This document shows, piece after piece, positions 10,255-47,054 of a stretch of DNA of 64,000 bases. Position numbers and translations under genes: made by a program. Location: the NCBI GenBank assembly GCA_000092065.1, contig CP000597.1; one strand, 5' to 3'. Under the pieces are notes generated by a model. The model saw nothing but the letters and a program-made list of their open reading frames with translations. It did no database searches and was not told where the DNA came from. The stretch comes from Ostreococcus lucimarinus (lineage: Eukaryota). Every line of letters starts with the position of its first letter. The stretch's first letter is position 1.

Positions 10255-11139
10255 ATGTCTCGCGCCATCTCCCGCGCGCCCGCGCGCGCGCCCGCGCGCG
10301 CCATCGCGCGCCGACGCCACCGGACGCGCGCGCGCGCGACCACCACCACCGCCGAAGTCGACGCGTTCGCGCGCGAAATCAGCGGCGAATGGATCGGGCA
10401 CTGCGCGAGCTTCGATCCGATCAGCGGTGAACCCTCGAGTCTGCCGTCGTCGATGGTTCCGGACGCGTTCCGCGAGTGGGGGATGGACATAAAGGATTGG
10501 CAGAGCCAGTGCTCGACGACGGTTCGGGACGCCGCGAGCGGGACGGAGTTGTACTGCAAAGACGCCCGGTTCGTTCCGGTGGTCGGATGCGAGGCCGACG
10601 CGTCGACGGTGGAGAGCTTCGAGCGCGACGCGATCGCGATCGAGCGCGTGGCCGTGGAGGCGGGCGCGCGCGGCGGGTACAGCGCGTGTTACGAGGACCA
10701 AAAAGGCGTAGAAATCGTACAGCACTGCGTCGTGAACGACGCGCTCGATCCGCCGATTCGCGTGCGCATGAAGCATCGCGCGGACGGGTGTGGTGCGGTG
10801 CGCGTGTGGCGAGAAGCGATGGATGAACCGTTTTGCGACGGCGGCTCGTTGGCGTCGTCGTGCGGCGGCAACAGCGCGGTGGCGAAATTCGCCGAGTATC
10901 CGCGAGACGCCGCCGACGTCGTCGCGCGCGTCGACGCCGATTTCACCCTTCCCACCAACGCGACGCAACTTCCCGTGGGTATTTGGTTCTCCATCGTCGT
11001 CGAGGAAGACGGTTCGTACGCGTCTCAACTCGGGTACGCCGACGAGAAAACCGCCTCGCACGTCGCGAGCGCTCGCTCGCGATCCGGCCGCGACGAGTCC
11101 TCCGTCGTCGTCCGCTTTCACCGCGCGCTCTCGCCTTAA
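10255..11139 (+). CDS. hypothetical protein with an R/A-rich N-terminal presequence (probably organelle-targeted), Cys-containing globular domain
   Basis: Track ORF 9742..11139 overlaps the end of the previous gene out of frame. The first ATG, at 10255 (MSRAISRAPARAP...), gives a 294-aa protein. Composition is protein-like after the presequence (GEWIGHCASFDPISGEP ... IWFSIVVEEDGSY). No family recognised. Confidence 0.5.
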   Translation: MSRAISRAPARAPARAIARRRHRTRARATTTTAEVDAFAREISGEWIGHCASFDPISGEPSSLPSSMVPDAFREWGMDIKDWQSQCSTTVRDAASGTELYCKDARFVPVVGCEADASTVESFERDAIAIERVAVEAGARGGYSACYEDQKGVEIVQHCVVNDALDPPIRVRMKHRADGCGAVRVWREAMDEPFCDGGSLASSCGGNSAVAKFAEYPRDAADVVARVDADFTLPTNATQLPVGIWFSIVVEEDGSYASQLGYADEKTASHVASARSRSGRDESSVVVRFHRALSP

Positions 11140-11950: not shown

Positions 11951-11976
11951 TTATTTTGTAACGTAATTTAGTGCGA

Positions 11977-12489
11977 TTAATCGAGCGCGTCTAGATCGCG
12001 GTACGCCGCGTCGGAGACGCGACCGTCGGCGTCGAGCGCGCGCGCGGCTTTGTCTTTTTCGCGGTCGTCCACGCGCGGTTCCGGTGCGACGCCCGCGGAG
12101 ACGTCGTGCTCGACGCGTCTCGCGGGACGCCTCGCGGACGTCGTCGCGCGCGACGCGACCAATGGGAAGGCCTCCGCGCGCTTCAACGCGATCGCCGTCG
12201 GCGTGACGACGAGTTTGCCGGGTTCGTCGTCCGCGTCGTTCGCGTCGTCGACGTCGTCGCTTGGATGCTCGGAGTCGCGCGCGTCGACGTCCTCCTCCGG
12301 ATACGTCAAGTACGTCGGCGTCTCGTACGTCAACCCCAATCGATCCATCTCTCGTATCCTCTTCACCGCTCCCGGCGCGGTCAAATCGCTCACGTCATCT
12401 CCTCGATCGATCACCGCGTACGCTTTCGCGATGGCGAGCTCGGCGTCCTCGATCGCGCGTCGCGTCGCCGCGGCTTCGTTCACGCGCAC
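11977..12489 (-). CDS. possible small acidic hypothetical protein
   Basis: 170-aa ORF with protein-like composition. It begins with GTG and has no early ATG, so it may be spurious or may have an upstream exon. It lies 27 bp convergent to the previous gene. Confidence 0.25.
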   Translation of the reverse strand: MRVNEAAATRRAIEDAELAIAKAYAVIDRGDDVSDLTAPGAVKRIREMDRLGLTYETPTYLTYPEEDVDARDSEHPSDDVDDANDADDEPGKLVVTPTAIALKRAEAFPLVASRATTSARRPARRVEHDVSAGVAPEPRVDDREKDKAARALDADGRVSDAAYRDLDALD

Positions 12490-12853: not shown

Positions 12854-14035
12854 ATGCCTCGCCCTCGCGTCGCCGTCGTCGCCCTCGAATACGACCGAGA
12901 CGCGTTCAGCGGGAACGGGATACTGTGTCAAGGTCTGGCCCGCTCTTTGGCGGCGCACGCGGACGTCCTCGTGCTGTGCGCGCGCCCGAGAGGTTCGGGA
13001 CGGGAGGACGATGTCCCGGTGGTGACGCGCGGCGACGGTGCGACGACGACGGCGTACGTCGACGTCGACACGTGGCACCGACTCGACCGTCTCGGTCCGC
13101 ACGAGCAGTTCGCGCGCGGGTGCGCGTCGCGGGCGATTCGAGACGCGGTGGCGGCGTTCGGCGCGAGCGCGTGCGTGGGCGTCGATTTCAGCGCCGTCGC
13201 GGCGGCGACGAATTCTGGATTGTGTGGCGGCGACGTTCCGTTTATTTGGTCGCCATTTCGAATTTTTAGTCGGAGCGATTTCGATGGGCATCACGCGCTC
13301 GAGTGCGATGGCGTGCGAAGGAGCGATGGGGTGCTGGCGTTGTGCGCCAGCGACGCGGATTTCGTGACGGAGCGGCTCGGCGCGGCGGTTCGGCCGCTCG
13401 TCGTCCATCCACCGTTGAGGGAGAGCGTGTTGAAGATTGCGCGCGCGCGGCGCGGAGAGACTCGAAGACGGAAGTACTTGACGTGCGTCGTGCGCGTGAG
13501 CGAAGAGAAAGAGCCGCACAGGTTCGTCGAGCTGTGCGAGGAACTCGCGAGGCGAGGCGTTTTTGATTCCAAAGCTCTCTCGCCCGTGTTTTGCGCCAAC
13601 GCGAGCTTGTGTCAAACGAGCGCGTACGCACAAGATCTGAAGGCTCGCTTTCAAAAGTGTGCGCCCAGTGGTCGAGTGATTGAGCACTTTCTTTCGCCGG
13701 AAGAGTTGGGCGAATTGTTTAGCGAGACGATTTTGAACATTCACCCGCCGACACACGACGCCTTCGGGATGACAATCGTCGAAAGCGCAGCGTTTGGTGC
13801 GCCCTCCGTCGTACATCACGCGGGCGCGGTCGGAGCGAGTGAGTTATTACAGACCATTGGTGTGGACGTGGAAGCTCCGACGCGCGAGTTCGCTGATAAA
13901 ATCGAAGAAATTCTTCTCGACGCGCGCACGCGCGTCGTCGCCGAAAACGCCCACTCCAAAGCTTTGGAGTGGGACGAGGCCAGTTTTGGGCATGCGGTCT
14001 TCGACTTTTTGTTCAGTCACATTAGAAATCCGTAG
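12854..14035 (+). CDS. glycosyltransferase, GT4 family (RfaG/GT1-type fold)
   Basis: ATG at 12854. The C-terminal GT4 signature region reads HPPTHDAFGMTIVESAAFGAPSVVHHAG. Confidence 0.8.
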   Translation: MPRPRVAVVALEYDRDAFSGNGILCQGLARSLAAHADVLVLCARPRGSGREDDVPVVTRGDGATTTAYVDVDTWHRLDRLGPHEQFARGCASRAIRDAVAAFGASACVGVDFSAVAAATNSGLCGGDVPFIWSPFRIFSRSDFDGHHALECDGVRRSDGVLALCASDADFVTERLGAAVRPLVVHPPLRESVLKIARARRGETRRRKYLTCVVRVSEEKEPHRFVELCEELARRGVFDSKALSPVFCANASLCQTSAYAQDLKARFQKCAPSGRVIEHFLSPEELGELFSETILNIHPPTHDAFGMTIVESAAFGAPSVVHHAGAVGASELLQTIGVDVEAPTREFADKIEEILLDARTRVVAENAHSKALEWDEASFGHAVFDFLFSHIRNP

Positions 14036-14070
14036 TTCGTAGCGATTATGTAATACTAGCGCTGTGTAGC

Positions 14071-16692
14071 CTATCGCGCGTCGTTCCCGAATTCCTTCTC
14101 AAGCGCCTCGGGATGTTCAAGACACTGCAGGGCGTCCTTGTGTATGAAAAATTTAGTATCCGCCGAGTCTAAGAGTCCGCGCACGATTGTGGCGACTTGT
14201 GAGTGACAATGTTGCAAAGCACCTAACACTCTGCATGCTCCCACTCGAACGGCTTTGTCGGCGTCATCGGCGAACACGAAGATGTCTCCCACAAACTTCT
14301 TAGCCGTCTGATGGTCGTTAAAATCGCGTATCAACTGTGCAATGGTTTTCCCCAAGGCTAACAACGAACGAACACGAACCTGAGTACTTGAGGAAGTCGA
14401 GACTTGCTCTAAATATCTGGATGCGACGCGCTCGAGAAATTTTACTGCGTTTTGTCTGTCTGCCAAACATGCACATTTTTGCAAATGCAACATGGCGTCT
14501 CTCTTTTGCCGGCAAAAGACAGACGACGTTTTTTCGAATGACATCGAACATATCACGTCTATCACTCGCTTTGAACGATTTTCTAGTGATAACCAGCGCG
14601 TCAAGAATGTTTGCAACGCACTTTCTTCGGATTGCTCATCTGTCAGGGATTCCACAAACTCGCCAATTTCATCATTATACGAAATTGGCTCACTCAATGA
14701 ATTTTGAACGGCGAAACACGTGGCGGCTATATCGGCAAGCTGCGCCGTCATTTCACCCGGTCTCCATCGCATCCAATCGAGCAAAGCGTCCAGAACTGGA
14801 GCGATATTTGTGACAAAATCCGCCTTATTCAGTGTCTCATCGCCGCGTGATCGCAAGTACAAGATGAATGGTACCATGAAGTCTTTGACTGTAAGAAGTG
14901 AATCCAATGATGCATCACACGTCGCTGGGTCGATTTGTTGGGCGAGACATTCCGATATTTCAGCAACCAGTTGCGTACCGCGAAGAAGGCAAAAAAGCGC
15001 CGTGAGTGTATTTGCCCGGAACGAACGTAGTGGTACGTTACGGTCGACGATGAGACGAAATATCTCCGATGCCTCAACTTCATCCTTTGGAGTGCATGCC
15101 ATCAACATCTCGCCAGTTACGTCGATGGAAGACATTCCGCACACACAAAAGTACATAGTCTGAATTTTCACACATGCTTCAAGTTTCTTGAACTTTCGCG
15201 TCGCCATGCTAGCCTTATTCTGCTGACGAAGAATCTCTAAACATGACGCAAGGATACTTTCGACGCAATTTAGGACGCCACTTGAATCATCTAGCTTGTC
15301 ACATGAATCCAATCGAAACATAGTCTTCTCCAGACTTTCTGAAATGAACGCAACATCATCCAAGTTGAGTGCATGTGTGACGCCATGCTGCTTTCTTCTA
15401 GAGAGAAATTTTTCGCATACACACAAAGCAACCATGTGCAAAGTAAACTCGGAGTTTACGTGCAGCATCGTCGGTTCAACCCACGTCCTACGCGTCGAGG
15501 GCGCGTGAATCATCAATATTTCCATCAAATATTCCGCATCGCGCCAAACAAGACTCTTGGTCAAAGTATCTAGCAACATCTTGATGATTGAATCGACGAA
15601 CGGGGCAACGCGATCGCCGACGTGTTCGACGATGAGCGCGCACGCGCGGAGACGCCGTCCAAGGATGTCTTTGTCATCCGTGCGCCACAGCTGATCGTTT
15701 AACATGCACTGAATCATTCGTTCTAAGGTATAGTGCGTCACTGATGCAAACCCTTCATTCATAGTTTTTGTCAAGTGCGCTTTGTTCACGTAATCGATGT
15801 GCGCAAAAGGATTTCTTTTCCCGACGGCACTCACAAACATCGCGCACAGCAAAGCTGCATCCGCTTCTCTTACGGTGAAAAGCCCAGAATATATGCGTCT
15901 AACGAAGCACATGGAGACGCTACAGGACACGGCGTGTCGTACTGTGCACTTTTCATCTAAGCTCAAGCGTAACATATCACGAGCATATGCCTCGTGCACG
16001 CGCAAATCGCACAACTTCAACATCGCGGCGGTGGCCAACTCCCCGCACTGAATCGCCGCACACGCGCGGATTTTGCTGAAGCGATGACTCAAACAGAGCG
16101 TGTGGATCGTCCAAAACAGTTTCTCGAGCACTCGTATCCACTCGCTACGTCTAAAAAGTTCATTTTGAATCGCGCTCCACGCCCCGCACCACACCGCGAC
16201 TGCGACGACTTTCGAATCCTCGCTCCGCGCGTACTTTTCGAAATCCTTCACCAACTCCAGAGCGCCTTCCAACTTTCCCGTTTCATCAAAAAATTGAATT
16301 CGTCTCGCAATGTCGAACATCTCTTTCATCTCGTCCTCGATCTGTGTGTCGAGAAACAACTCTTTCGTGACGTCGTCGATCTCGGCTCGGTCAAACGCGT
16401 CGTCCGCCGCTTTGACCAAACCCGACAACACCGCCATTCTCTCGCGTTGCTGTAGTGCCTCCATCGCGATGATGAACGCGTTGTAAAGAGTCGCGATCGT
16501 GCCATCGAGCACGGCGCGCACGATCGCGTCTCGCGCGAGCGCGAGCGCGGTTTCTTTCGACGCGGCCTCGAGGACGGCGGCGCGCTCCGCGCGCGCCGAG
16601 GACGCAACACCGGCGACGTCGCGCGAAGTGAAAGGATCGAGAAACCACCGGTCAGGGGCGTCATCGTCATCATTTGCGTCGTTTTGGGGCAT
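14071..16692 (-). CDS. large (873 aa) alpha-helical (HEAT/ARM-like?) protein of unknown function, encoded by an anomalously low-GC gene
   Basis: It is a continuous 2.6-kb ORF with ATG at 16692 (MPQNDANDDDD...). GC is about 47% in sampled 60-nt lines against about 68-70% in neighbouring genes. Codon usage is AT3-rich. An ORF this long at that GC content cannot be random. No recognised domain. Confidence 0.7.
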   Translation of the reverse strand: MPQNDANDDDDAPDRWFLDPFTSRDVAGVASSARAERAAVLEAASKETALALARDAIVRAVLDGTIATLYNAFIIAMEALQQRERMAVLSGLVKAADDAFDRAEIDDVTKELFLDTQIEDEMKEMFDIARRIQFFDETGKLEGALELVKDFEKYARSEDSKVVAVAVWCGAWSAIQNELFRRSEWIRVLEKLFWTIHTLCLSHRFSKIRACAAIQCGELATAAMLKLCDLRVHEAYARDMLRLSLDEKCTVRHAVSCSVSMCFVRRIYSGLFTVREADAALLCAMFVSAVGKRNPFAHIDYVNKAHLTKTMNEGFASVTHYTLERMIQCMLNDQLWRTDDKDILGRRLRACALIVEHVGDRVAPFVDSIIKMLLDTLTKSLVWRDAEYLMEILMIHAPSTRRTWVEPTMLHVNSEFTLHMVALCVCEKFLSRRKQHGVTHALNLDDVAFISESLEKTMFRLDSCDKLDDSSGVLNCVESILASCLEILRQQNKASMATRKFKKLEACVKIQTMYFCVCGMSSIDVTGEMLMACTPKDEVEASEIFRLIVDRNVPLRSFRANTLTALFCLLRGTQLVAEISECLAQQIDPATCDASLDSLLTVKDFMVPFILYLRSRGDETLNKADFVTNIAPVLDALLDWMRWRPGEMTAQLADIAATCFAVQNSLSEPISYNDEIGEFVESLTDEQSEESALQTFLTRWLSLENRSKRVIDVICSMSFEKTSSVFCRQKRDAMLHLQKCACLADRQNAVKFLERVASRYLEQVSTSSSTQVRVRSLLALGKTIAQLIRDFNDHQTAKKFVGDIFVFADDADKAVRVGACRVLGALQHCHSQVATIVRGLLDSADTKFFIHKDALQCLEHPEALEKEFGNDAR

Positions 16693-16797
16693 GGTTTTGG
16701 ACGAAACGATCGGTCGAGCGTCGAGGTGTGACAACGCCGGCGGCGTTTTCGTTTCGTTCTCGCGAAACGACGCTCACATTATCTAAGTCTATGGAAT

Positions 16798-19149
16798 CTA
16801 TGGGTCTACACGCGCGACCGCGCGCAAGATGGCGCTCGCCTTGAGCTCTATTTCCTCCCACTCCGACACTGGATCACTGAGAATGGTGATCGCGCCTCCC
16901 GCGCCGATCCACTGCTCGTCGCCGCGCGAGAGCACGCTTCGGATGACGATGTTCAGATCGAAGGCGCGCGAAAGCGAAAAGAATCCGATCGAACCGCTGT
17001 AAACCATCCGCGGACCGGTTTCCAAGGCGTCGATGATTTCCATAGTACGTATTTTTGGCGCACCTGTCATACTACCGCCCGGATAGGTGGCGCGGACGAC
17101 ATGCATCGGGGTGACGTCGTCGCGTCGGCGACCTCGAACCGTGCTGACGAGTTGGTGCACTGTGGCGTAGGATTCAATTTGCATCAATCCTGGGACCTCG
17201 ACAGTGCCCACGTCGCACACGCGCGCGAGATCGTTTCGCAACAAGTCAACGATCATCAAATTTTCTGCACGGTCCTTGACGTTGCGCTCGAGGGCGAGCG
17301 CGGCGGCGCGGTCTGCGGCGCCGCCGAGCGGTTCGAGACGCTTGCACGTGCCTTTAATCGGCTTCGCCTCGAGCGCACCCTCGGTGGTGTGGCGTAAAAA
17401 CCGTTCGGGGGAGCAACATGAAATCACCAACGGGTGTTCGTCGCCGCCAATGCTCAGAAGCGCGGCATAAGGCGCGGCGTTACTACGGCGAAGCTCAGAA
17501 TAGAGCCGGCGCGGCTCCGCGCGCGAACCAGTTCGGCGCAACATGTTCGTCAAACACACTTCGTACGTTTCCCCCGCCTCGATGGCGTCTTGACTTGCTT
17601 TGATGTCCGATATGTACTCATCGCGATCGCGGCGCCACTTGAAACCGGTCTTCTCGAGTAACTCGGTCGATGACATCGGCGGCGAGGTCGTCGGCGGCGA
17701 ATCCGAAGCCTCGACGGTCTCCGTCGCCAGGCGCGAGACCTCGCGAGTCGTCGCCGCGACCCACGATTGCGTCGCATCGCGTCCGCGAGCGTCGTCTTCT
17801 TCGTAAACACCCACGATGTACGCCTGGCGCTCGACGTGATCGAACGCGACGAAGCGATCGGCCAAGAAGAACGCCGCGTCCGGGAGCGGCGAATCGTACT
17901 TCGGCGGAAGCGAATCGCACTCGTCGCGCAATTCATAGCCTAAATACCCCACAAAACCACCTTGGAAATCGAACGGCAACGCCGCGGCGTCCGATTCGTT
18001 GAGCGTTCTTCTCTGAAGCTCGTCGTCGAGCCAAGACACGAATCCACGCTCGAGCGTCGTCGTTGTTGAGGCTTCGCCGTCAAAAATCTCAATCGACCCC
18101 GCGGCGCGTCGACGCGTCGACGCGCCGCCCACGCGCCAACACACCTTTCCGTTATCTTCGACCGTGTCCGCGTCGCGCTCGGGCGCGGACGCGAGATTAT
18201 ATCGCACGCGTCGCCACATCGACCCCCCACGCGCGCCCATAAAGCTAAACCGCCCCTTGGACTCGTCCGCGGAATCGAGCCAAAAGCAGTCGCGCGCCAC
18301 GTCGCCCGCGTCGCCTTCGACGCCGCCAAACAAACTCCAAAATATGCCCTCCGTCGTGAACGCGCTCGACGACGCGACATCCAAACTATTAAACTCTAAT
18401 CGCACGCGCGATCGCGCTGTCATCGGGATCGACGCGCGCGTCGTCGGCTCGTCCGCCGCGCCCAGCGAGCGAGGAATCGCTTCGCCGCTCGGCGGCGCCC
18501 GCCCTCGCGTCTTCCACCACCGGTCGCTGATCGCCATAAAATTCGCATAGATCTTATCCCCGTACGTCGTGCTCACGCTTTCCGGGTGAAACTGCACGCC
18601 GAATCGCGGCAACTCGCGATGATCGATCGCCATAATCGTCCCGTCGTCCTCCGCCCACGCGCGCGCTCGATACTCCTCTCCGCACGCCGTCACCGCCAAC
18701 GAGTGATACCGCGTCGCCACGAACCCGGCGTCCCCTCCCGACGGCACGCCATCAAACAGCGCGCTCTCACCGTCGTGTCGCACCCCGCACACGCGTCCGT
18801 GCACCGCTCCGCGCGGATTCCGTTCCGCGACGCCGCCGGCCGCGAGCGCCGCGAGCGCCTGGTGCCCCAAACACACCCCGAAGATCGGCATCTCGCGCGC
18901 TTCCGCCGCGTTCGACCGCACGAGCGCGTCGCCGACGCCCAAATCGCTCGCCCGACCCGGCGTCCCGGGCCCCGGCCCGATCACGACGCGCGTCACCGTC
19001 GTTCGCAGCGCCGCTCGAAGCTCCGAAAAGTGCACCTCGTCGTTCTTAATCACCCACGGCATCGCGCCCTCGCACCGCGCGATCACGTGCGCCAGGATTT
19101 CGGCGTACGAATCGTAGTTGTTGATCAGCAGCGCGCGCGCGGGCGCCAT
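16798..19149 (-). CDS. ADCS: bifunctional aminodeoxychorismate synthase (PABA synthase; N-terminal glutamine amidotransferase PabA domain fused to C-terminal PabB chorismate-binding domain)
   Basis: The N-terminal type-1 GATase reads ALLINNYDSYAEILAH...IFGVCLGHQALA...FGVQFHPES. The C-terminal chorismate-binding domain reads LMIVDLLRNDLARVC ... RATYPGGSMTGAPKIRTMEIID ... YSGSIGFF. This GATase-then-PabB order matches plant/fungal ADCS. Confidence 0.85.
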   Translation of the reverse strand: MAPARALLINNYDSYAEILAHVIARCEGAMPWVIKNDEVHFSELRAALRTTVTRVVIGPGPGTPGRASDLGVGDALVRSNAAEAREMPIFGVCLGHQALAALAAGGVAERNPRGAVHGRVCGVRHDGESALFDGVPSGGDAGFVATRYHSLAVTACGEEYRARAWAEDDGTIMAIDHRELPRFGVQFHPESVSTTYGDKIYANFMAISDRWWKTRGRAPPSGEAIPRSLGAADEPTTRASIPMTARSRVRLEFNSLDVASSSAFTTEGIFWSLFGGVEGDAGDVARDCFWLDSADESKGRFSFMGARGGSMWRRVRYNLASAPERDADTVEDNGKVCWRVGGASTRRRAAGSIEIFDGEASTTTTLERGFVSWLDDELQRRTLNESDAAALPFDFQGGFVGYLGYELRDECDSLPPKYDSPLPDAAFFLADRFVAFDHVERQAYIVGVYEEDDARGRDATQSWVAATTREVSRLATETVEASDSPPTTSPPMSSTELLEKTGFKWRRDRDEYISDIKASQDAIEAGETYEVCLTNMLRRTGSRAEPRRLYSELRRSNAAPYAALLSIGGDEHPLVISCCSPERFLRHTTEGALEAKPIKGTCKRLEPLGGAADRAAALALERNVKDRAENLMIVDLLRNDLARVCDVGTVEVPGLMQIESYATVHQLVSTVRGRRRDDVTPMHVVRATYPGGSMTGAPKIRTMEIIDALETGPRMVYSGSIGFFSLSRAFDLNIVIRSVLSRGDEQWIGAGGAITILSDPVSEWEEIELKASAILRAVARVDP

Positions 19150-19385: not shown

Positions 19386-20354
19386 ATGTCCGGCGACGAC
19401 GCGAAGCGCGCGAGCGACGCGGCGAGCGCGCGCGATAAGTTGCTGTGGATCATCATCTACTCCCTGTGCTCGTCGACGATGCTGGTGATCAATAAGCTCG
19501 CGGTGGGCGCGAACGGGCTGCCGACGGTGGTGGCGGGCGCGCAGCTCGCGGTGTCGGCGGCGGTGGTCGTCGTGATGGAATTCGCGGGCGCGGGAGTGTT
19601 GGGACCGTTTGAGAAGAAGCGGATCGTGCCGTTCGTGCTGTACACGACGATGTTCGCCATGGGGTTGTTTTCGAACATGAAGGCGCTGATGCTGACAAAC
19701 GTCGGGGCGGTGATTTCGGCGAGGTGCTGCCTGCCGCTCATCGTGTGCTCGATCGAGTGGTTTTTCATGAATCGAGCGTTCCCGAACGCTCGAAGCGTGA
19801 TGTCGCTCATGGGAGTCGTGGTTTCGGCCGGGATTTACATCGCGAACGATACCGGGGTGGACATTCAAGGCGGGGCGGGGATGTTTTGGTTGCTCGTGTG
19901 GTGGCTGTTGCTCGCGGTGCAGATGACGTACGGAAAACACCTGACGGAGAACATCGCGATGACGCAGTGGGAGCGAGTGTTTTACACGAACGCCATGGCT
20001 ATCCCGCCGACTATAGTTCTTTATTACGCCACCGGGGAAAACGAGCTCGAGATGGAGGATGGCGAAGGGGCGATGTTTTATTTGATTTTGAGTTGCGTCG
20101 TCGGCGTGGCGATTTCGTACAGCGGGTGGAAGTGCAGAAGCGTCATCACGGCGACGACCTTCACGCTCGTGGGGGTGCTGAATAAGATGGCCACGATCAC
20201 ATTCACCATCATCGTCTGGCCTAAAGATTTCTCGGTGGTTAAAACGCTCGCTTTAATCGCGAGCGTGGGGTTCGGTTTGCTCTACACGGAGGCGCCGCTG
20301 CGCAAGCCCAAGGTCGCGGGCGCAGGAACTTCGCCGCTTGGGATTAAGCACTAG
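19386..20354 (+). CDS. nucleotide-sugar / triose-phosphate transporter family (TPT/NST, GDP-mannose-transporter-like) multi-pass membrane protein
   Basis: The first ATG in the track ORF is at 19386 (MSGDDAKRA...). The protein has about 9-10 TM helices and the conserved NST-type loop KHLTENIAMTQWERVFYTNAMAIP. It diverges from the ADCS gene across 236 bp. Confidence 0.8.
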   Translation: MSGDDAKRASDAASARDKLLWIIIYSLCSSTMLVINKLAVGANGLPTVVAGAQLAVSAAVVVVMEFAGAGVLGPFEKKRIVPFVLYTTMFAMGLFSNMKALMLTNVGAVISARCCLPLIVCSIEWFFMNRAFPNARSVMSLMGVVVSAGIYIANDTGVDIQGGAGMFWLLVWWLLLAVQMTYGKHLTENIAMTQWERVFYTNAMAIPPTIVLYYATGENELEMEDGEGAMFYLILSCVVGVAISYSGWKCRSVITATTFTLVGVLNKMATITFTIIVWPKDFSVVKTLALIASVGFGLLYTEAPLRKPKVAGAGTSPLGIKH

Positions 20355-23423: not shown

Positions 23424-25604
23424 CTAACTCAAGCCGAGAATTTGGTCGTTCTCGGTGTCCACAGAGATTTCGTAGTACGCCGGTCGCGTGGGCAAGCCCG
23501 GAATCGTCGGGAACGCGCCGACGAGCGGGACGAGGAAACCAGCACCCGCGCTCAAGCGGACGTCGCCGATGGGCAACGTGAACCCGCTCGGCGCACCCTT
23601 CAACGATTGGTCGTGAGAGAAGGAGTACTGCGTCTTGGCCATGCAAATCGGCAAATCGCCGAAGCCTTGCTCGGTGAAGAGCTTGATCTTTTCTTCGGCT
23701 CGTTCAGAGAACTCAACACCGTCAGCCTTGTAGATGTTCTTCGCCACGGTTTCAATCTTACTCTTGATGTCGAGAGAAGATTCGTATCCAAACTTGAAGT
23801 CCTTGCAGTCTTCGTTCGCCTCGCACGCCGCCTTGACGGCGTTGGCGAGCGCGACGGCGCCCTTGCCCCCGTGCGCGTGATGGGTGCAGAGAACGGCGTC
23901 TTCCGCGCCCGCGGCGAGAGAGATTTCACGAATCACCGCGTGTTCCGCTTCGGTGTCGGTCGGGAACGCGTTGATGGCGACGACGACCGGGATACCGAAA
24001 GACTTGGTGTTTTCGATGTGGCGGACCAAGTTGCACATGCCCTCGCGCACCATGTCGACGTTTTCAGTCGTGTACGAGTGATCGAGGGGCTTACCCGCGG
24101 TCACGGGCGGACCACCGCCGTGGCACTTCAACGCGCGCACGGTGGCGACGATGACGGCGCAGTTCGGCTTCAGACCAGACTTGCGGCACTTCAAGTTGAC
24201 AAACTTTTCGAGGCCGATGTCGGCGCCGAAGCCGGCTTCGGTGACGACGAAGCCACCCTTACCGACCATGGAGAGACCGATTTGATCGGCAATGATGGAC
24301 GAGTTACCGCTCGCGATGTTAGCGAATGGGCCGGCGTGCACGAGCACGGGCGTCGCTTCGAGAGTCTGCATCAACGTCGGCTTGATGGCGTCGCGCATGA
24401 GAGCCATCAACGCGCCGGTGACGCCCAAATCGTCGCACGTCACCGGGGTGCCGTCGCGCGCGGGGCCGACGACCATGTTTCCGAGACGGTTTTCCATGTC
24501 CGCGAGCGAAGTCGTCATCGCCAAAACCGCCATGATTTCCGAGGCGACGGTGATGTCGAAACCAGTCTTGCGAGTCTTGCCCTTCTCCGTCGGCGATTCG
24601 CCGACGGTGATTTCGCGCAAAAAGCGGTCGTTCATGTCGACGACGCGTCTCCACGTGATGCGCTCGGGGTCGATGTCCAAACGCACGAATTTGTTTCGCT
24701 CTTCTTCCGTCAAGTCATCGGGATTGGTTTTGTCGATTCCAAGCTTCTTCAAGCGCTTGAACATGATGGCTGAGAACTTGCGAGAACCATCCTTGGCTTG
24801 CGGCATCAAGCGCTTCCACAGCGCCTCATCGCTTTGCGTGGATTCGTGGAACACGCGCGCGTCCACCGCCGCGGCGAGCAAGTTATTCGCGACGCCGATG
24901 GCGTGAATGTCCCCGGTCAAGTGCAAGTTCATCTCCTCCATAGGAATCACCTGCGAGTACCCCCCGCCCGCGGCCCCCCCCTTGATGCCGAACGTCGGTC
25001 CCATGGACGGTTGTCGAATGCACGCCACCGCCCGCGCGTTCGTGTGCGCCTGCATCGCCTGCACCAACCCGATCGTCGTCGTGGACTTCCCCTCTCCCAA
25101 CGGCGTCGGCGTGATCCCCGCCGTCACGACGTAATACCCGTGCCCCGCCGTCGCGTCGCACGTCGGCCCGTCGCCCTCGCCCTCGCGCCCTCCCAGCGTC
25201 GAGCTCAGCTTTTCCGACAGTTTCGCCTTATACCGTCCGTACATCTCGTAATCATCCTCCGTCAATCCGCACATCTTCTCCGCGATCTCCCTGATCGGCA
25301 GCGCCTTCGCCGCGCTCGCGATTTCGATGTCGCTCGGCGTCGGCGTCGTCACCTCCTCCAACCGCCTCGCCCCGAAATCGTACCTCGCCTCGCTCGCGCG
25401 CTCGATCGTCATCCCGACCGTCGTCGTCGTCGTCGTCGTCGCGTCGCTCGCGCTCGAGCTCGACCGCGCGCGCGTCGCGCGTCGTTGGTCGTTCGCCCTC
25501 GCGACCGTCGCGCCGCGGTCTCTCGACGGTCGCGCGATCGTCGCGCGTCGCGCGCCGGCGCGCGCGAGCTGCGAGCGGGCGGTCGTCGCGAGCGCGGCGC
25601 GCAT
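23424..25604 (-). CDS. FTHFS: formate--tetrahydrofolate ligase (FTHFS) with an N-terminal organellar presequence
   Basis: ATG at 25604. FTHFS blocks include [66 protein letters not shown] and [14 protein letters not shown]. Confidence 0.9.
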
Positions 25605-26339: not shown

Positions 26340-28796
26340 ATGGGCGCGGACGCGCGCGCGACGACGATGCGCGACGCCGCGCGGCGATGGTACGACGACG
26401 CGATGGCGCCGTTCGCGCGCGACGCGGTCGTCGCGCTGGACGCGGAGGCGGCGGCGCAGGCGCGCGCGCACGCGGGCTGGGGCGGGACGAGCGGGACGGG
26501 ACGCGCGCGCGCGACGCGGGCGCTCGAGGCGTACGCGACGATGGACGACGCGATGGGCGACGAGGAAGAGGTCTGGGACGTCAGGGGGGAGCGGGTGCCG
26601 GCGGAGGCGCCGCTGGTGATCTGCGTCGCGGGACGGCTGGGGGAGGCGGCGGCGAACGTGCGGCGGTGCGTGCGGGCGCGGCGACGCGCGACGCGCGCGA
26701 CGGTGTTCGTCGGATGCGACGAGGGCGATGAGGCGCACGGGGCGTGCGTGGAGGCGCTGACGGAGGCGTGTGAAAGGATTTTGAGCGACGCGGCGGCGGA
26801 ATTCGGGGAGACGCCGACGGGGAATCGTTCGGGGGTGGGACGGAACGAAGAAGGAGACGAAGACGACGAAGAGGACTGGGGGAGTTGGGGCGACGAGGAC
26901 GAGGCGAGAGACGAGGCGCCGGTGGAGGACTCGAGGGAGGGGACGGGCGATGGGTGGAACGATGCGCCGACGCCGACGTCGAAACAAGGGCGAAATCGCA
27001 CCGCCGCCGCGGACGCCGTCGCGGGTCGGTTTTCGGTCAAGTTTTTCCCTCCTATGATGTATCGCGCGCTCGGCGACGGTGCGTTCACGCTTCCGCGAAC
27101 GCGAACGATGGGGTTGGTGAACGATGCCGCGGCTGCGTTGACGGGGGAGTCGAAAGAGAATCGCGTCATCGGGCATCACTTGGCTGAAATCGCCGCGCAC
27201 TGGGCGTTGGCGCCGGATTATTTCGCCCTCGGTCCGAACGCCGAAGCCGTGTCGCGCGTCGCAGCGCAAGCGAAGACCGATCCCGTGGGCGTGGACACGA
27301 CGGTGAAACCACGAACGGCGGCGATCATCGTCGTCGATCGCGAGGTGGACTTGATGACGCCGAGCGTGAGTCGAGACGGTTGGCTCGAGCGCGTGTTGGA
27401 GACGACGGACGACGAAGACGCGGCGTCTTCATCGACCTACGTCGACCGCGTCACGGCGACGTTGTCCCCGCTCTTGAGCGATGAAAATGTTCTCACGTTA
27501 GATGAAGCTCTGTGCGCGAAGACTGCGCGTGATGGCGCTGTGCACGTGCGGAAGTTGCTGCGCGAGGCGGCTCGCGTGGAATCCGTCGCCGCGCCGGCGG
27601 CGGATGGAAAGAGCGCGCGCGTCGTCGGTGCTGACGATATTCTTAGCTTAGTGCGAGCGCTGGAGGTTGATCCTAGCGTTGCTTTGCGTCATCGCGCGTT
27701 GATTCAGCGCGCAAAGCTCACCGCGCGGAGTTTGACGGATGAGAACGACATGAAGGCGAATAGGCAAATCATCGCTTTGCAACGACTCACCGCCGCTGCG
27801 CTCGAGCGCCAAGCCACGGGCGTGTGCGCGACGGTGGTAGAGATACTGAAAGTGATGTATTCTGCGGGAGGTACCGCCGTAGGTCACCCGAGCGAGGCGC
27901 TGGCGCTCGTCTTAGCGGCGTATGTACTCGCGACGGAGGCGAACGTTCAAGCGCAGGCGCCGACGAACGCCGCGTCGCCGTTCACGGCGCAAGACGAGGC
28001 GTCCGTGCGCGACGCACTTTTGGGCGCACTACTGGCGAGCGATCTCGCCGATGTGAAGAAGCAAGTTCCAAGTTTCAACGCCAGTGCGCTCGAAGCGCTC
28101 GAAGCGCTTCAGAACGCGACCGCGGCCGCGGCCGCCGACGCGACGCCGACGCCCTCGAAAGATGACGACGGTTGGGACGACGACGACGACGACGACTGGG
28201 GCGACGATGAATGGGGCAACTCTCCGACGGCGCCGAGTAAATCCACGACGACGAACGCGATGACGGCGATCGACGATCCCGAACTCGCCGCCGCCGCGCT
28301 CGAGGCGCGAGACGCCGTCGAGCGCGCGCTTCACAACTTCGCCCTCGCCGCGCATCGCGGCCGCGCATCGCTCAAGCACAACATCCCAGAGTCTAACTCA
28401 CTCTACGCCAACGGTCTACCCAACTCCATCCTGCTCGACATCATCTCCCGCGTCAAGACGTCCGCCGACGACGGCGGCGCGTGCGCCGATTTCGTCCACG
28501 TCGCCGCCTCCCTCGGCGGCTTACTCAAGCACGCCGCCGCCACCGCCACCGCATCCATCGTCACCGGCGCCATGGGTCGTCTCGGCAACCTCATCAACAA
28601 GGTCACCGCCGCCCCCAAACCATCCGATCGCGACGTCGTCGTCGTCTTCCTCCTCGGCGCCCTCTCCTCCGGCGAATTCGCCGCCGCCCTCACCGCGCGC
28701 GCCCCCGATCCCGCCGCCGCGCTCTTCGCCCGTCACAGGGATCGCGAGTTCATCTTCGGCGCGCTCGACCTCGCGTCCGCGCGCGCCATCGCGTGA
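26340..28796 (+). CDS. Sec1/Munc18 (SM) family vesicle-fusion protein (Vps33/Vps45/Sly1-type) with long low-complexity insertions
   Basis: ATG at 26340. SM-family hallmarks: RTAAIIVVDREVDLMTPS (compare the LILDRxxDxxTPL motif) and the C-terminal RDVVVVFLLGALSSGEFAAAL (compare VVFVVGGxTYxEi). A Trp/Asp cluster DDDGWDDDDDDDWGDDEWG sits in an insertion. Confidence 0.6.
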   Translation: MGADARATTMRDAARRWYDDAMAPFARDAVVALDAEAAAQARAHAGWGGTSGTGRARATRALEAYATMDDAMGDEEEVWDVRGERVPAEAPLVICVAGRLGEAAANVRRCVRARRRATRATVFVGCDEGDEAHGACVEALTEACERILSDAAAEFGETPTGNRSGVGRNEEGDEDDEEDWGSWGDEDEARDEAPVEDSREGTGDGWNDAPTPTSKQGRNRTAAADAVAGRFSVKFFPPMMYRALGDGAFTLPRTRTMGLVNDAAAALTGESKENRVIGHHLAEIAAHWALAPDYFALGPNAEAVSRVAAQAKTDPVGVDTTVKPRTAAIIVVDREVDLMTPSVSRDGWLERVLETTDDEDAASSSTYVDRVTATLSPLLSDENVLTLDEALCAKTARDGAVHVRKLLREAARVESVAAPAADGKSARVVGADDILSLVRALEVDPSVALRHRALIQRAKLTARSLTDENDMKANRQIIALQRLTAAALERQATGVCATVVEILKVMYSAGGTAVGHPSEALALVLAAYVLATEANVQAQAPTNAASPFTAQDEASVRDALLGALLASDLADVKKQVPSFNASALEALEALQNATAAAAADATPTPSKDDDGWDDDDDDDWGDDEWGNSPTAPSKSTTTNAMTAIDDPELAAAALEARDAVERALHNFALAAHRGRASLKHNIPESNSLYANGLPNSILLDIISRVKTSADDGGACADFVHVAASLGGLLKHAAATATASIVTGAMGRLGNLINKVTAAPKPSDRDVVVVFLLGALSSGEFAAALTARAPDPAAALFARHRDREFIFGALDLASARAIA

Positions 28797-36781: not shown

Positions 36782-38323
36782 TCACGCGGTGAAATCGACC
36801 TCGTTGGCGAGGATTTGCTCGAGGGTTTGCTTGCGACGAATGACGGCGAAACCGGCGCCGTCGGCGAGTCGCATGACTTCGGGAGCCTCGGGGAAGGAGT
36901 TGTAGTTCTTGGAACTCATGCCGGCGCAGTAGGCGCCGGACCCCTCGATGACGACGTAATCGCCGATGTTGACTTCGCCCATGCGACGCTCGGAGATGGT
37001 CTCCGGCTCGTCCGGGGCCGGGGTGAGCAAATCTCCGGATTCGCAGCAGTGCCCGACGACGACGTAATCGGCTTGCGCGGCGGGCAATTCGCCAGCCTTG
37101 CTCACCGACACCAGCGGGTGCTGAGAGCCGTACAAGCTCGGGCGTAAGACTTCGGTCATACCCATGTCGAGTTTCAAGAACGTGTGCCCTTCGGCGGTGC
37201 CGGTGACGACCTTGTCTTGCACCGAGGTGACGACGGCGCACGAGTTGGCCAACAAAAACGTACCGGGCTCGATTTCGAGCTTTAACTTACGTCCGGTCTC
37301 CTTCGCGAACGCTTCGAACGCTTCTTTCACCGGCACGCCGACGACGGCGAGATCGGTGGACTTTTCGTACGACATCCGCCCGACCTTGTAGCCGCCGCCC
37401 AGGTTGAGCGTGTCGACGCTCGGAAACTCTCGGCACAAATCCAAGGACATCCCGCTCACCTTTTGCCACACCGCCGGATCGCTTCCGCTTCCGATGTGCG
37501 TGTGCACGCGCACGACCTTCAAGTCGTACTGCTCCACGATTTCCTTCACTCGCGGCAGAGACTCGAACCAAATCCCGAACGACGAGCTCGGCCCCCCCAC
37601 GTTCGTCTTCCCCGTCCCGCCGCTGCCCAGCCCCGGGTTAAACCGCACGCCGACCTCCCCTCCCGGGAACGCCCTTCCGAATCGTTCCAACTGATCCAGC
37701 GAGCACGCGTTCACCTTCACCCCGCGTCGCACCAAATCCTCGAAAAACCTCGGCAGCTCTTGCGTCGACAGCGAGATCTCCCCCCCCTCGAATCCCGCCT
37801 TCATCGCTCGCTCGCACTCGTATCCGCTCGACGCGTCGACGTGCAGGCCAGCCTTTTTAAACGTCTTCAGGATCGCCGCGTTCGGGCTCGCCTTCATCGC
37901 GTACCGCACCGTCAATCCGTACGCGTTCGGAAACGCCCTCGCCCGCGCCGCCTGCGCGTCCAGCGTCGCGCGGTCGTACACGTACGTCGGCGTCCCGTGC
38001 GTCTCCGCCACGTCGCGCGCGTCCTCGGGCGTCAGGAACCGCAGCGTCTCCACCGCGCTCGCGCTCGAGCGCGCGCCGAGGCGCGCGCGCGGCGCCGTCG
38101 CGGTGCGCGCGCGCGTCCATCGTCCCGTCGCGCGCGTCGCGCGATCGCGTCGCGCGCGCGCCGTCGCGACGCGCGGCGCCGTCGCGGTCGCGCGCATGCC
38201 GTCTCGAGCGAGCGCTTTCGTCGTCGGCGCGCGCGTCGGCGCGTCGAGGCGTGCGGCGCGGCGACGATCGCGAAACCTCGATCGACGTCGCATCGCGACG
38301 CGCTCCGATGCGCGCGCGCGCAT
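36782..38323 (-). CDS. LYSA: diaminopimelate decarboxylase (lysine biosynthesis, plastid-type with transit peptide)
   Basis: Orn/DAP/Arg decarboxylase family 2 motifs: [20 protein letters not shown] (PLP lysine), [32 protein letters not shown]. The start may be an internal Met, because the 5' end overlaps the opposite-strand gene. Confidence 0.9.
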
Positions 38324-39696
38324 CGCGGGCGTCGACGACGTCCGCGACGGGACGGACGACGACCGCGACGCGCGCCGGCGGGCGCGGCGCGCGCGCGACG
38401 CGATGGACGACGCGCGCGAACGACGACGGCGCGGCGAACGATTCGACGACGACGACGACGACGACGACGACGGGCGCGCGCACGCGACGCGCGCTCGCGC
38501 GCGACGCGGCGTCGAGCGCGATCGCGGCGATGGCGTGGCGCGCGCGCGCGGCGGGCGCGACGACGACGGTGACGTACGAGGGGAGGACGCGGCCGGCGTA
38601 CGCGTTCGACGCGGCGCTGCGGGTGGCGACGCTGCGGCGGAGCGCGCCGCCGAACGCGGCGAACGAGTTCTCGAGGACGCAGACGAACAGGGTGAAATTT
38701 AAGATGACGGCGGTGGCGAGCGTGGGGGAGATTTACGGGAGCCTGGCGAGGGGAGGGAAGAAGACGAGGGGGGCGGACGCGACGACGCTGGGCGACGAGT
38801 GGTTGGCGCCGGCGATCGCGAATGGGTTGATACGGCCGATTCCGGGGGCGGAGTCCTCGGCGTGGTTCGCGAGGTTGTCGCCGGTGTGGCGAACGCTGGT
38901 GCGGCGAGACGCGCGCACGGGGAGGGTGAGCGCGGGGGGGGAGATTTACGGCGCGCCGTACGGGTTTGGATGCGCGGTGATCGCGTACAGAAAGGATAAG
39001 CTGCCGAAGGGGGTGAAGCCACCGCGAGATTGGGAGGATTTGTTCGATCCGAGGTTGAAGGGTTTGATCGGGATGCCCAACGCGCCGCGGTTGGTTTTGA
39101 GCGCGGCGCTGAAGGCGGAGGGGATGTCCGCGAACGCGAGCGACATCGGCGGCGCGGACGGGCGAGTGAGCGCGCGCGTGCGCGCGCTGCGCGAAAACGT
39201 CAAGGTATTCGATGACTTGCAATACACGCAAGCGATCGCGTGTGGCGATTGCGCCGTCGTCATCGGGCCTTCGGAGGATGTATTTTCCGTCGCCCGTCGA
39301 TCGACTCTGATCGGTCTCGCGGTGCCGAGCTCGGGAACGACGCTGTGGAGCGATTGTTGGGTCGTGCCCACCGCGACGGTGGCGAACAAAGGCGGTGGTC
39401 CATCGCCGGTCTTAGAGCAGTGGATCGATTACACGCTTCAGCCGGCGCGCGTGAACATGCGGGTTGGCTTGAAGGGGGGGATTTCGCCTCTCATGTTTGA
39501 CGGCCGCGGCGTCGACGGCGGTTACGCTAGGTACCCCAACGTCGCTCGTCCCGTGCTCGGGAGTGATGACGGCGATATGCTAAAAGGTTGGATACCAGAC
39601 GACTCCGTGTGGTCGGCGAGCGAGTTTCAGCTTCCGCTCAGCGACCGCGCGCGCGCACAATACGTCGCGATGTCACAGGCCATCGTGCGTCGATGA
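38308..39696 (+). CDS. bacterial-type periplasmic solute-binding protein family 1 (PotD/putrescine-binding-like), probably plastid-targeted
   Basis: ATG at 38308. The presequence contains a poly-Asp/Thr tract. The mature part resembles PotD/AfuA-type SBPs ([40 protein letters not shown]). A plant 'putrescine-binding periplasmic protein-related' family exists. Confidence 0.55.
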
Positions 39697-44733: not shown

Positions 44734-45372
44734 CGCCTCCCGCCCCGCGCGCGTCGTCGCGCGCGCCGCACCGCGCCGCCACGCGCGCCGTTTCCGGGTT
44801 CCGCACTCGCCCACGTCATCGGATAACTCGCGCGCGTCGCGCGTCGCGCGACGCCGCGCGCGACGCCGCGCGATCCGCGGGCGGCGCGAAAAATTCCCAC
44901 GCCTCGTTCTCGAGGTCGTCACGCACCGGCGGCCGCCATGTCGAGCGACGTTCGTCTCGTCTCGTTGTGCGGACGCGCGACGCTTTTCGCGCGTCGCGGC
45001 GGCGGCTCTCCGCAAACGACGCCGCGTGCGCAAACAGTGACGCGCTAAAAACCTGCGCGCGACGCGCGCACTTTTTCGTCTCATCGGCCTTTAAGACATC
45101 GCGATGCGATATCGCGCGCGCGTTCGTCCATTATGACTCATTCGACGGTTCGCGACTCGTCGATTGATTCGCCGCTAAAATCCGTCCCCTTGGCGGCGGC
45201 GCCCGGTCGCGGCGCCGCATTCCTCGACCGACGCGCGCGACGCGCGGGCGTGGACGCGCGCGCGGACGCGAACGAACGCGAGCGAACGATCGAGACGCCT
45301 CGCGATCGCGACGACCGCGCTCGAGCGGGCGAGCGGGCGCGAGGGGACGACGGGAACGGGCGACGCGTGACG

Positions 45373-45734: not shown

Positions 45735-45770
<36 letters not shown>

Positions 45771-46996: not shown

Positions 46997-47027
46997 GTTG
47001 TTAAAAACGACACTTCATAAAAGCAAA

Positions 47028-47051: not shown

Positions 47052-47054
47052 GCA

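Follow-up and report, generated by a model that had tools for sequence, protein, structure and literature searches.

A native, fast-evolving gene forms the GC-poorest stretch of a 64-kb chromosomal window in Ostreococcus lucimarinus

The genomes of Mamiellophyceae hold more GC than mutation would give them, with an equilibrium GC content (GCeq) of 36.8–46.2% against 56–64% observed, and gene conversion or selection has been invoked for the difference (PMC5455958). In Ostreococcus tauri, codon bias is stronger in more highly expressed genes, and G or C is the last base of nearly all optimal codons (PMC3673656), and population data from this species support gene conversion, with linkage disequilibrium halved within 2 kb (PMC5498103). 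Two kinds of described GC-poor region come closest to the locus reported here. The outlier-chromosome regions of Mamiellales (the candidate mating-type locus on the big outlier chromosome, and the small outlier chromosome) have lower GC and GC3 and faster-evolving genes, extend over 150–650 kb of suppressed recombination and are richer in introns and transposons or hold numerous species-specific genes; the usual explanation invokes a reduction of GC-biased gene conversion together with weaker selection (PMC8557840, PMC5498103). In addition, for some yeasts, diatoms, a red alga and Pelagomonas, GC-poor troughs have been proposed to mark centromeres (10.1101/2021.10.25.465678). A search of the literature turned up no report from Ostreococcus of a GC trough restricted to one gene or of a GC gradient within genes.

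Here we analyze a GC trough in a stretch of 64 kb (hereafter the window) of a 366-kb chromosome of O. lucimarinus strain CCE9901, an assignment that rests on exact protein matches to the CCE9901 entries XP_001422115.1, XP_001422118.1 and XP_001422233.1. Like the outlier regions, the locus combines lower GC and GC3 with fast evolution, but it consists of one intron-less 2.6-kb gene within a collinear, GC-rich standard region. With the centromere troughs (those of some yeasts, Phaeodactylum and Cyanidioschyzon and the Pelagomonas candidates) it shares a short trough in a GC-rich, small chromosome, whereas it differs from them in being a conserved, selected coding sequence whose trough is shallow or absent in O. 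tauri.

The layout of the locus is given in table 1. The upstream aminodeoxychorismate (ADC) synthase, identified by Pfam matches to GATase, Anth_synt_I_N and Chorismate_bind, lies 105 bp away, as the preliminary description of this DNA had correctly stated; this spacer is of comparable size in all lineages compared and, we infer, must contain the promoter of the GC-poor gene. The low-GC block spans the 3′ ∼2.3 kb of the coding sequence (CDS), the 35-bp spacer beyond it and the last codons of the GT4 glycosyltransferase gene. At the composition of the gene, the probability of 873 codons staying open is ∼8e-20, and a scan with Rfam and for tandem repeats found no RNA gene or repeat able to account for the composition.

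Table 1. Features of the locus, with coordinates as positions in the 64-kb window
Feature	Coordinates	Strand	Description
CDS of the GC-poor gene	14071..16692	minus	ATG-to-stop ORF, 873 codons
Low-GC block	13981..16380 (∼2.4 kb)	none	GC 48.2%; minimum 42.5–45% in 200-nt intervals
GC-rich CDS start, first 300 nt	16393..16692	minus	GC 64%, GC3 0.75
Spacer, ADC synthase stop codon to start of the GC-poor gene	16693..16797	minus	105 bp, genes in tandem
Spacer between convergent stop codons of GT4 and the GC-poor gene	14036..14070		35 bp, 43% GC
Bifunctional aminodeoxychorismate (PABA) synthase (ADC synthase)	16798..19149	minus	783 aa, GC 63.7%, upstream anchor
GT4 glycosyltransferase	12854..14035	plus	393 aa, GC 62.2%, convergent downstream anchor

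We confirmed that no other stretch of the window is as poor in GC as this gene. The 2-kb interval with the lowest value (13980–15979) has a GC of 0.474 (z = −2.9 against non-overlapping intervals), and the next-lowest outside the gene (45779–47778) has 0.523. For the entire ORF, GC is 50.3% where the window averages 62.3%; compared with the 26 other genes of the window, the gene is low in total GC (0.503 vs. a mean of 0.626, sd 0.034; z = −3.6), in GC3 (0.569 vs. 0.769; z = −3.45, falling to 0.545 without the first 300 nt) and in GC1+2 (0.471 vs. 0.555; z = −2.1). The value of about 47% GC in the preliminary description is accurate for the block at ∼13980–16380 (47–48%) but not for the ORF as a whole, and the surroundings, put there at 68–70%, are well below this, both in the window mean and in the two flanking genes. 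Similarly, the codons are not AT3-rich in absolute terms (GC3 0.57), although their third positions are the least GC-rich in the window. Its statement that GC is strongly gene-specific here was right, gene GC3 ranging from 0.57 to 0.85, and the milder dips it noted in the big ORF (1503 aa) and the TRAPPC8-like gene are real. The edges of the block do not coincide with those of the CDS, as had been claimed, because the first 300 nt of the CDS are 64% GC (0.665–0.670 in 200-nt intervals over 16400–16699); GC then falls gradually from 5′ to 3′, and the last ∼500 nt of GT4 are also low (0.54–0.57). Synonymous sites are not depressed in ADC synthase and only slightly in GT4, and the effect hence tracks the gene rather than the region.

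Codon bias in the gene is nearly absent. Its effective number of codons (Nc) is 57.2, where GC3 alone would give 60.0 and the other genes of the window lie 4–10 units under their own expectation, and its codon adaptation index (CAI) is the lowest of 27 genes, the two longest genes coming next. The 5′ GC peak of the gene is usual, being present in almost all genes of the window: in the 26 others, GC3 averages 0.847 over the first 300 nt and 0.737 further in (p = 1e-4), and the gradient in the GC-poor gene has the same shape at a level ∼0.2 lower. Gene length and distance from the 5′ end nonetheless explain the effect only in part. A regression on gene length leaves the GC3 of the gene 3.2 sd too low; when genes are compared in 300-nt bins matched for distance from the start codon, the gene takes the lowest rank in six of the nine bins and the second-lowest in two others; and ADC synthase, of similar length, holds its GC3 at 0.67–0.89. 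This pervasive 5′-to-3′ gradient in GC3 may be of wider relevance and use than the GC-poor gene itself.

The gene is native, vertically inherited and old. Eight loci were compared (the window, L004, L001, L006, the O. tauri-type L007, L009, L010 and L012), and orthologues occupy the same slot, between ADC/PABA synthase and a convergent GT4, in at least five Ostreococcus lineages. ADC synthase lies directly upstream in 8/8 loci, and GT4 is convergent downstream wherever the contig extends that far, except in L010/L011; the flanks are collinear with those of relatives at 92–95% nucleotide identity, and trees of the gene, ADC synthase and GT4 give the same clades. The O. tauri orthologue (XP_003084133.2, CEG00721.1, UniProt A0A096P9V3; 824 aa, annotated "Armadillo-type fold") sits in this slot at L007, is similar in length and all-alpha and shares with the rest of the family motifs including RWRPGE, HR...R...CG.L and F.DD....VR, at an amino-acid identity to the O. 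lucimarinus protein of 29%. A word-indexed protein search, even with an eight-sequence profile, reached the three closest clusters only, and the distant orthologues were recovered by an exhaustive HMMER scan of 1.84 billion representative proteins, in which the full-length matches were all syntenic Ostreococcus orthologues, the others were short fragments and no paralogue appeared. A metagenome scan anchored on ADC synthase and aimed at Micromonas or Bathycoccus yielded a single truncated Ostreococcus-like contig, plus 79 distant matches (28–41% identity, mostly from soil or freshwater metagenomes), and a profile search of 1838 ORFs from the metagenome ADC-synthase loci gave no homologue of the gene. 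In these sequence searches the family is detected in the genus Ostreococcus only.

A lone gene of this kind invites the hypothesis of a recent horizontal acquisition, for instance from a prasinovirus of 40–45% GC, with the low GC as an unameliorated donor signature. The base composition is unusual at every codon position, and the protein matches no Pfam family above threshold and has no homologue outside its narrow group, as a foreign gene might; however, the hypothesis is inconsistent with the shared position downstream of ADC synthase, the congruent trees and the near-normal GC of the more distant orthologues, and also with the gradual borders of the block, which are not at the CDS ends. A viral relative was likewise found neither in IMG/VR scans with two pattern sets nor in the HMMER scan, and a BFVD fold search gave no match at E ≤ 0.001 and none from a prasinovirus. 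The preliminary description, which had raised this origin, had itself named syntenic orthologues of equally low GC and a vertical phylogeny as the observations that would refute it; the two closest relatives are indeed syntenic and equally GC-poor, and we consider a foreign origin next to impossible.

The comparison across lineages further shows that the depression is graded. Orthologue GC stands against that of the local ADC synthase at 0.503 vs. 0.637 in the window, 0.512 vs. 0.652 in L004 and 0.488 vs. 0.633 in L001; at 0.591 vs. 0.636 in L006, 0.592 vs. 0.610 in L007 and 0.633 vs. 0.655 in L009; and at 0.519 vs. 0.568 in L010 and 0.544 vs. 0.589 in L012. In most loci the difference is hence 0.02–0.05, and in one clade it is 0.13–0.15. 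The strong depression is confined to the O. lucimarinus clade (49–51% vs. 59–63% in three other lineages); the O. tauri orthologue, at 59.2% GC and a GC3 of 0.69, is near its neighbors, where the O. lucimarinus gene has 50.3% and 0.57. These data also bear on the proposal that the gene is a relic of a low-GC outlier-chromosome compartment, big or small, that was shifted to a standard chromosome. Its GC3 deficit of ∼0.2 relative to its neighbors does resemble that of core mating-type-region genes of Mamiellales (PMC8557840). However, the depression covers one gene and 2.4 kb rather than hundreds of kilobases, the gene lacks both introns and a paralogue, collinearity at the locus is kept among Ostreococcus lineages, the O. 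tauri-type L007 included, and the orthologues of the L006, L007 and L009 lineages have near-normal GC; this proposal of the preliminary description is unsupported, and we regard such a relic as extremely improbable.

Substitution patterns indicate that the silent sites of the gene are at compositional steady state and are not ameliorating. Among polarized third-position changes, 21 are AT-to-GC and 21 GC-to-AT, giving an equilibrium (GC*) of 0.567 that equals the present GC3; over all positions there are 48 AT-to-GC and 71 GC-to-AT changes (GC* 0.41, vs. 0.57 and 0.65 in the neighbors), although the counts are small and parsimony polarization with a fairly distant outgroup is approximate. The absence of an AT-to-GC excess is a further argument against a foreign gene. 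Positions 1+2 carry a GC-to-AT excess (50 vs. 27), and the protein composition may therefore still be drifting or facing directional selection. The GARP fraction is 0.23 and the FYMINK fraction 0.22 in the O. lucimarinus clade, compared with 0.29–0.35 and 0.14–0.17 in the L006, L007 and L009 lineages, and the composition of ADC synthase is unchanged between these lineages.

The protein also evolves quickly, with a divergence two to five times that of its neighbors in every lineage pair. Amino-acid identity to the nearest relative is 85% (ADC synthase 94%, GT4 96%), to the next relative 59% (89% and 86%) and to L006, which is sister to the O. tauri-type locus, 30% (ADC synthase 65%). In two comparisons dN is 0.076 against 0.027–0.049 in the neighbors and 0.29 against 0.06–0.09, and dN/dS is 0.71 (nearest relative) and 0.33, where the neighbors have 0.14–0.32. 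The ORF is intact and under purifying selection, with dN/dS below 1.

We hypothesize that weak constraint on protein and codons, together with little GC-biased gene conversion, has let the GC-to-AT mutation bias dominate this gene, and we hold this to be the best reading of the data and a reasonably probable one. Mutation in Mamiellophyceae is biased from GC to AT, with a mutational-equilibrium GC of 37–46%, and two forces, GC-biased gene conversion and selection for G- or C-ending codons in expressed genes, would keep genomic GC at ∼60%. The gene would feel little of either GC-raising force because its protein is weakly constrained, because its codon usage is almost unbiased and because most of its length is far from any 5′ gene end, GC peaking at 5′ ends and the gene standing tail-to-tail with GT4. 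With these forces weak, all three codon positions would thus have relaxed towards mutational equilibrium, and amino-acid composition would have followed, with fewer Gly, Ala, Arg and Pro and more Phe, Tyr, Met, Ile, Asn and Lys. A mild depression is present genus-wide, and the deep one would have arisen in the common ancestor that O. lucimarinus shares with its two nearest relatives. The preliminary description had suggested that the gene may evolve fast or be very weakly expressed and escape GC-biased gene conversion; fast evolution and near-absent codon bias bear this out directly, whereas low expression is suggested by the codon usage and low local gene conversion is what we infer. This hypothesis does not account for the effect being stronger in the O. 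lucimarinus clade than in O. tauri.

Rapid change might instead be adaptive, as at the interface of a host–virus or other conflict, with AT-rich, unbiased codon usage as a by-product of, or itself selected for, tight low-level expression. The high divergence in every lineage pair, the dN/dS of 0.71 and the directional excess at positions 1+2 are compatible with this, as are three 100-codon segments with point estimates of dN/dS above 1 against the nearest relative (1.22, 1.51 and 1.39); however, these estimates rest on 5.5–6.3 synonymous changes each and are not significant, and in the longer comparison dN/dS is 0.16–0.51 in every segment. Amino-acid change moreover runs in the direction of the nucleotide bias, with GARP falling and FYMINK rising, which is what mutation pressure, and not specific adaptive substitution, would produce. 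We therefore consider an adaptive origin unlikely. In pairwise protein polymorphism among variants from metagenomes, the gene did not stand out from its neighbors.

Mutation bias under weak constraint may also be contrasted with a regional cause, a recombination cold spot, fixed across the O. lucimarinus clade, that locally removes GC-biased gene conversion whatever the expression of the gene and whose extreme form would be the centromere of this 366-kb chromosome. The trough is the deepest in the 64 kb and looks unique there, its depth is clade-specific, the GT4 3′ end and the 35-bp spacer are depressed as well, and missing gene conversion would again explain the likeness to the GC-poor troughs proposed as centromere markers elsewhere (10.1101/2021.10.25.465678); a brief literature search found no paper describing Ostreococcus centromeres. 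On the other hand, the flanking synonymous sites are hardly depressed, the gene opens with 300 GC-rich nucleotides, and the O. tauri orthologue has hardly any trough despite conserved synteny. In 12 natural variants, all four gametes occur for 14 of the 45 polymorphic residue pairs, which suggests recombination within the gene, although chimeric assemblies could mimic this. Instead of a non-coding or transcriptionally inert core, the trough is an intact 873-codon ORF under purifying selection (dN/dS 0.33–0.71) that is conserved in eight loci. A cold spot thus seems to us improbable. The stronger version, a heritable local suppression of meiotic recombination and gene conversion dating from the O. 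lucimarinus lineage, at the extreme a short regional centromere overlapping a transcribed gene, is very unlikely.

The gene is hence a real but fairly ordinary anomaly. A lone GC-poor gene in a GC-rich algal chromosome looks viral or foreign, and recognizing it as native removes a tempting false positive. It offers a clean natural example of one gene sliding towards mutational equilibrium under weak GC-raising forces, and the graded depression, seen at eight loci from at least five Ostreococcus lineages, makes the locus well suited to telling apart the effects of gene conversion, codon selection and protein constraint in this genus.

The product is predicted to be an all-alpha solenoid of the HEAT/ARM type with an uncharacterized role. 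The AlphaFold2 model (pLDDT 75.1) is built entirely of helices, arranged as tandem antiparallel pairs that form a superhelix, and Foldseek relates it to CAND1, Kap121, Kap123 and importin-beta (E 1e-6 to 1e-5), with low full-length TM-scores (0.14–0.27). A Pfam scan of the protein and eight orthologues gave HEAT matches below threshold only (HEAT_EZ at 17 bits, cut-off 27; HEAT_2 at 15 bits, cut-off 27.7), with 4/8 orthologues matching at all. The PDB yielded no sequence match to the single protein; with the family profile it yielded only generic HEAT-consensus matches, to CLASP TOG and transportin. As in the HEAT-repeat solenoids (importin-beta and other karyopherins, CAND1, PP2A-A and the TOG domains of XMAP215 and CLASP), helical hairpins are stacked along the whole chain; unlike in the characterized members, no family-specific motif or domain order is recognized, and orthology to any of them cannot therefore be claimed. 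The TOG-like resemblance is a weak lead, and the HEAT consensus D....VR..A is found in the C-terminal repeats.

The GC-poor gene is a genuine compositional outlier. At its own composition, the chance of 873 open codons is ~8e-20, and its GC content is 50.3% (codon positions 1/2/3: 0.543/0.398/0.569) in a 64-kb window of 62.3% overall GC. Compared with the 26 other confidently coding ORFs of the window, it lies at −3.6 sd for GC, −3.45 sd for GC3 and −2.1 sd for GC1+2, and it holds the lowest of all 2-kb windows in the 64 kb (13980–15979; 0.474, z = −2.9), the next-lowest stretch outside it being at 0.523. The preliminary description of a single GC-poor 2.6-kb gene is thus borne out, but the surroundings are less GC-rich than the 68–70% it gave (GT4 glycosyltransferase gene, 62.2%; aminodeoxychorismate [ADC] synthase gene, 63.7%), and the low-GC block does not coincide with the CDS: GC is 64% over the initial 300 nt of the CDS and falls gradually along the gene, and the convergent GT4 gene is itself depressed over its final ~500 nt (54–57%). 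Codon usage, described as AT3-rich, does have the lowest GC3 of the window, without being AT-rich in itself.

Genes of the window named in the text
Feature	Coordinates	Strand	Remarks
294-aa gene	10255-11139	+	XP_001422115.1, exact sequence match
GT4 gene	12854-14035	+	convergent with the GC-poor gene
GC-poor gene	14071-16692	-	ATG to stop, 873 codons
ADC synthase	16798-19149	-	783 aa
Gene	19386-20354		XP_001422118.1, exact sequence match
Gene	53791-57813		XP_001422233.1, exact sequence match

Exact protein matches assign the window to a 366,173-bp record of Ostreococcus lucimarinus CCE9901, and because it is GC-rich and collinear with the O. tauri-type locus L007, we infer that it lies on a standard rather than an outlier chromosome. 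Several neighbouring genes match O. lucimarinus accessions in NCBI, UniRef or EukProt, but none of these accessions matches the exact GC-poor gene or ADC synthase product, both of which occur in the protein collection searched only as entries from metagenome/SRA assemblies; the reference models for the two genes may be missing or different.

A word-indexed protein search with the 873-aa product returned only three clusters (identity 100%, 85% and 57%), and when 1.84 billion representative proteins were searched exhaustively with a HMMER profile there were 13 matches in total, among them five further full-length proteins (823–901 aa). O. tauri XP_003084133.2/A0A096P9V3, annotated “Armadillo-type fold”, belongs to one of the clusters of relatives. 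On the relatives' contigs the common gene order is 14-3-3, a ~310–320-aa gene (a DMT nucleotide-sugar transporter by O. lucimarinus annotation), ADC/PABA synthase, the GC-poor gene and convergent GT4; loci L010/L011 have no GT4 gene at this point, and contig L012 stops at the GC-poor gene. The same clades emerge from neighbor-joining trees of the GC-poor gene, ADC synthase and GT4, namely the window with its nearest (L004) and next (L001) relatives, L006 with the O. tauri-type L007, and L010 with L012, L009 standing apart. Conserved gene order and matching trees thus establish that the gene is native and has been vertically inherited since at least the Ostreococcus ancestor.

A recently acquired foreign gene, perhaps from a prasinovirus, had been suggested and is rejected on the strength of this synteny, the congruent trees, the lack of viral relatives and the lack of movement towards host GC. 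Two IMG/VR scans found no relative. Nothing in BFVD reached E ≤ 0.001 in a Foldseek search, and no prasinovirus entry was matched. Polarised with L001, changes along the window and L004 branches number 48 AT-to-GC and 71 GC-to-AT over all positions and 21 of each at third positions, giving an equilibrium GC3 of 0.567, which is the present value; drift towards host composition was absent. Equilibrium GC is 0.41 for the GC-poor gene, 0.57 for ADC synthase and 0.65 for GT4. The low GC is hence a steady state, not a fading donor signature. A relic of a differently composed outlier chromosome region, also proposed earlier, is likewise rejected.

A slight depression of the gene is genus-wide, and the deep one is restricted to the O. 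lucimarinus clade. GC drops from the 5′ end in every lineage and bottoms out in the central or 3′ third, where the gene also evolves fastest.

GC content of the GC-poor gene and ADC synthase across Ostreococcus loci
Locus	GC-poor gene	ADC synthase
Window	0.503	0.637
L004	0.512	0.652
L001	0.488	0.633
L006	0.591	0.636
L007 (O. tauri-type)	0.592	0.610
L009	0.633	0.655
L010	0.519	0.568
L012	0.544	0.589

Amino acid usage tracks the nucleotide shift (Gly/Ala/Arg/Pro 0.23 here vs. 0.29–0.35 in the L006, L007 and L009 lineages; Phe/Tyr/Met/Ile/Asn/Lys 0.22 vs. 0.14–0.17), whereas that of ADC synthase is unchanged.

The gene evolves rapidly, as had been proposed, with dN 2–5 times that of its neighbours. 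The product is 85% identical to that of the nearest relative (ADC synthase 94%, GT4 96%), 59% to that of the next (89% and 86%) and 30% to that of L006, the sister of the O. tauri-type locus (ADC synthase 65%), falling to 29% for L007 itself. Its dN/dS of 0.71 on the short branch and 0.33 on the longer one (neighbours 0.14–0.32) points to purifying selection that is weak. Adaptive evolution is possible but has no statistical support: dN/dS exceeds 1 in three 100-codon segments on the short branch, each on only ~six synonymous changes, and is 0.16–0.51 in all segments on the longer branch. Divergence from the nearest relative peaks in the stretch 14644–15516 (residues ~400–600; 85–89% nucleotide identity, several indels; dN/dS point estimates 1.4–1.5 on very few synonymous changes), which is also the GC minimum of the gene in most Ostreococcus lineages. 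Codon usage is nearly unbiased (Nc 57.2 vs. 60.0 expected from GC3), whereas all other genes fall 4–10 units under expectation; by CAI the gene ranks bottom among 27, the two longest genes coming next.

AlphaFold2 with eight orthologues predicts an all-helical solenoid (pLDDT 75.1, pTM 0.60), and the product is, by this model, a HEAT/ARM-type scaffold, although Pfam HEAT models score below threshold against it and its orthologues. The top PDB profile match, a CLASP TOG domain (E 8e-5), aligns only over the HEAT consensus D....VR..A and is a lead, not a finding.

Part of the low GC3 reflects position and length. GC3, like GC1+2, declines 5′ to 3′ in almost every gene of the window (mean GC3 over 26 genes 0.847 in the first 300 nt and 0.737 in later bins, Wilcoxon p = 1e-4; e.g., 1009–2439(−), 23424–25604(−), 26340–28796(+) and 38308–39696(+)), reaching 0.51–0.60 inside the two longest genes, and the corresponding loci of other Ostreococcus lineages have a gradient of the same shape. 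It could arise from promoter-proximal gene conversion or from selection close to the translation start; our literature search found no paper pairing Ostreococcus with a GC gradient. The GC-poor gene shows this profile at a lower level (0.75 to 0.45–0.52), ranking last of all genes in six of nine bins and last but one in another two, and it remains 3.2 sd low after regression on length, so that position and length do not account for all of the effect. Because the adjoining ADC synthase synonymous sites show no depression and the GT4 3′ end only a slight one, the effect follows the gene itself and not its wider surroundings. As judged from 64 kb, a regional recombination cold spot or centromere trough is disfavoured, since the trough is an intact, selected ORF, its shape is bound to the gene, O. 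tauri almost lacks it, and four gametes in 14/45 site pairs among natural variants hint at recombination, with chimeric assemblies as a caveat.

In Mamiellophyceae, mutation accumulation gives a mutational-equilibrium GC of 36.8–46.2% vs. 56–64% observed, a gap ascribed to gene conversion and/or selection (PMC5455958). In O. tauri, more highly expressed genes have stronger codon bias, and almost every optimal codon has G or C at its third position (PMC3673656). Population data support GC-biased gene conversion, LD falling by half within 2 kb (PMC5498103). GC3 is lower by ~0.2 in non-recombining low-GC regions (PMC8557840). As the simplest account in light of these findings, we hypothesize that the gene, being weakly constrained, probably weakly expressed and for the most part far from any 5′ gene end, would experience little GC-raising pressure and settle near mutational equilibrium. 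We infer low expression and low local gene conversion, and likewise the cause of the clade-specific deepening. The outlier is real and its explanation ordinary; it joins the GC-poor, fast-evolving genes already known from GC-rich Mamiellales genomes.

Ser-codon repeats account for the low GC of 45779–47778 (52%), second-lowest in the window, a stretch that involves a poly-Ser/Lys/Glu low-complexity gene, 45133–46996(+), resembling Nopp140/SRP40. Its long Ser-rich ORF ends at 46638 and a C-terminal piece, SRP40-like by eye, continues to 46996 in another frame, which suggests an intron or frameshift.

Contigs L003–L005, of the closest relative, carry ~3 kb with two extra genes (L004 14753–17797, matching window point 11967–11977), a 343-aa NAD-dependent epimerase and a 487–554-aa RRM protein, neither having a counterpart at the matching point or elsewhere in the window; in L010/L011 a 192-aa gene and then the epimerase follow the GC-poor gene. 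The 294-aa gene encodes a protein 100% identical to that of L003 18647–19531 (dS 0.005). Neighbouring genes have dS 0.11–0.17 to L004, and over the 294-aa gene L004 itself shows ~2% nucleotide difference. The pattern reflects either mosaic metagenome contigs or recent gene flow between these lineages.
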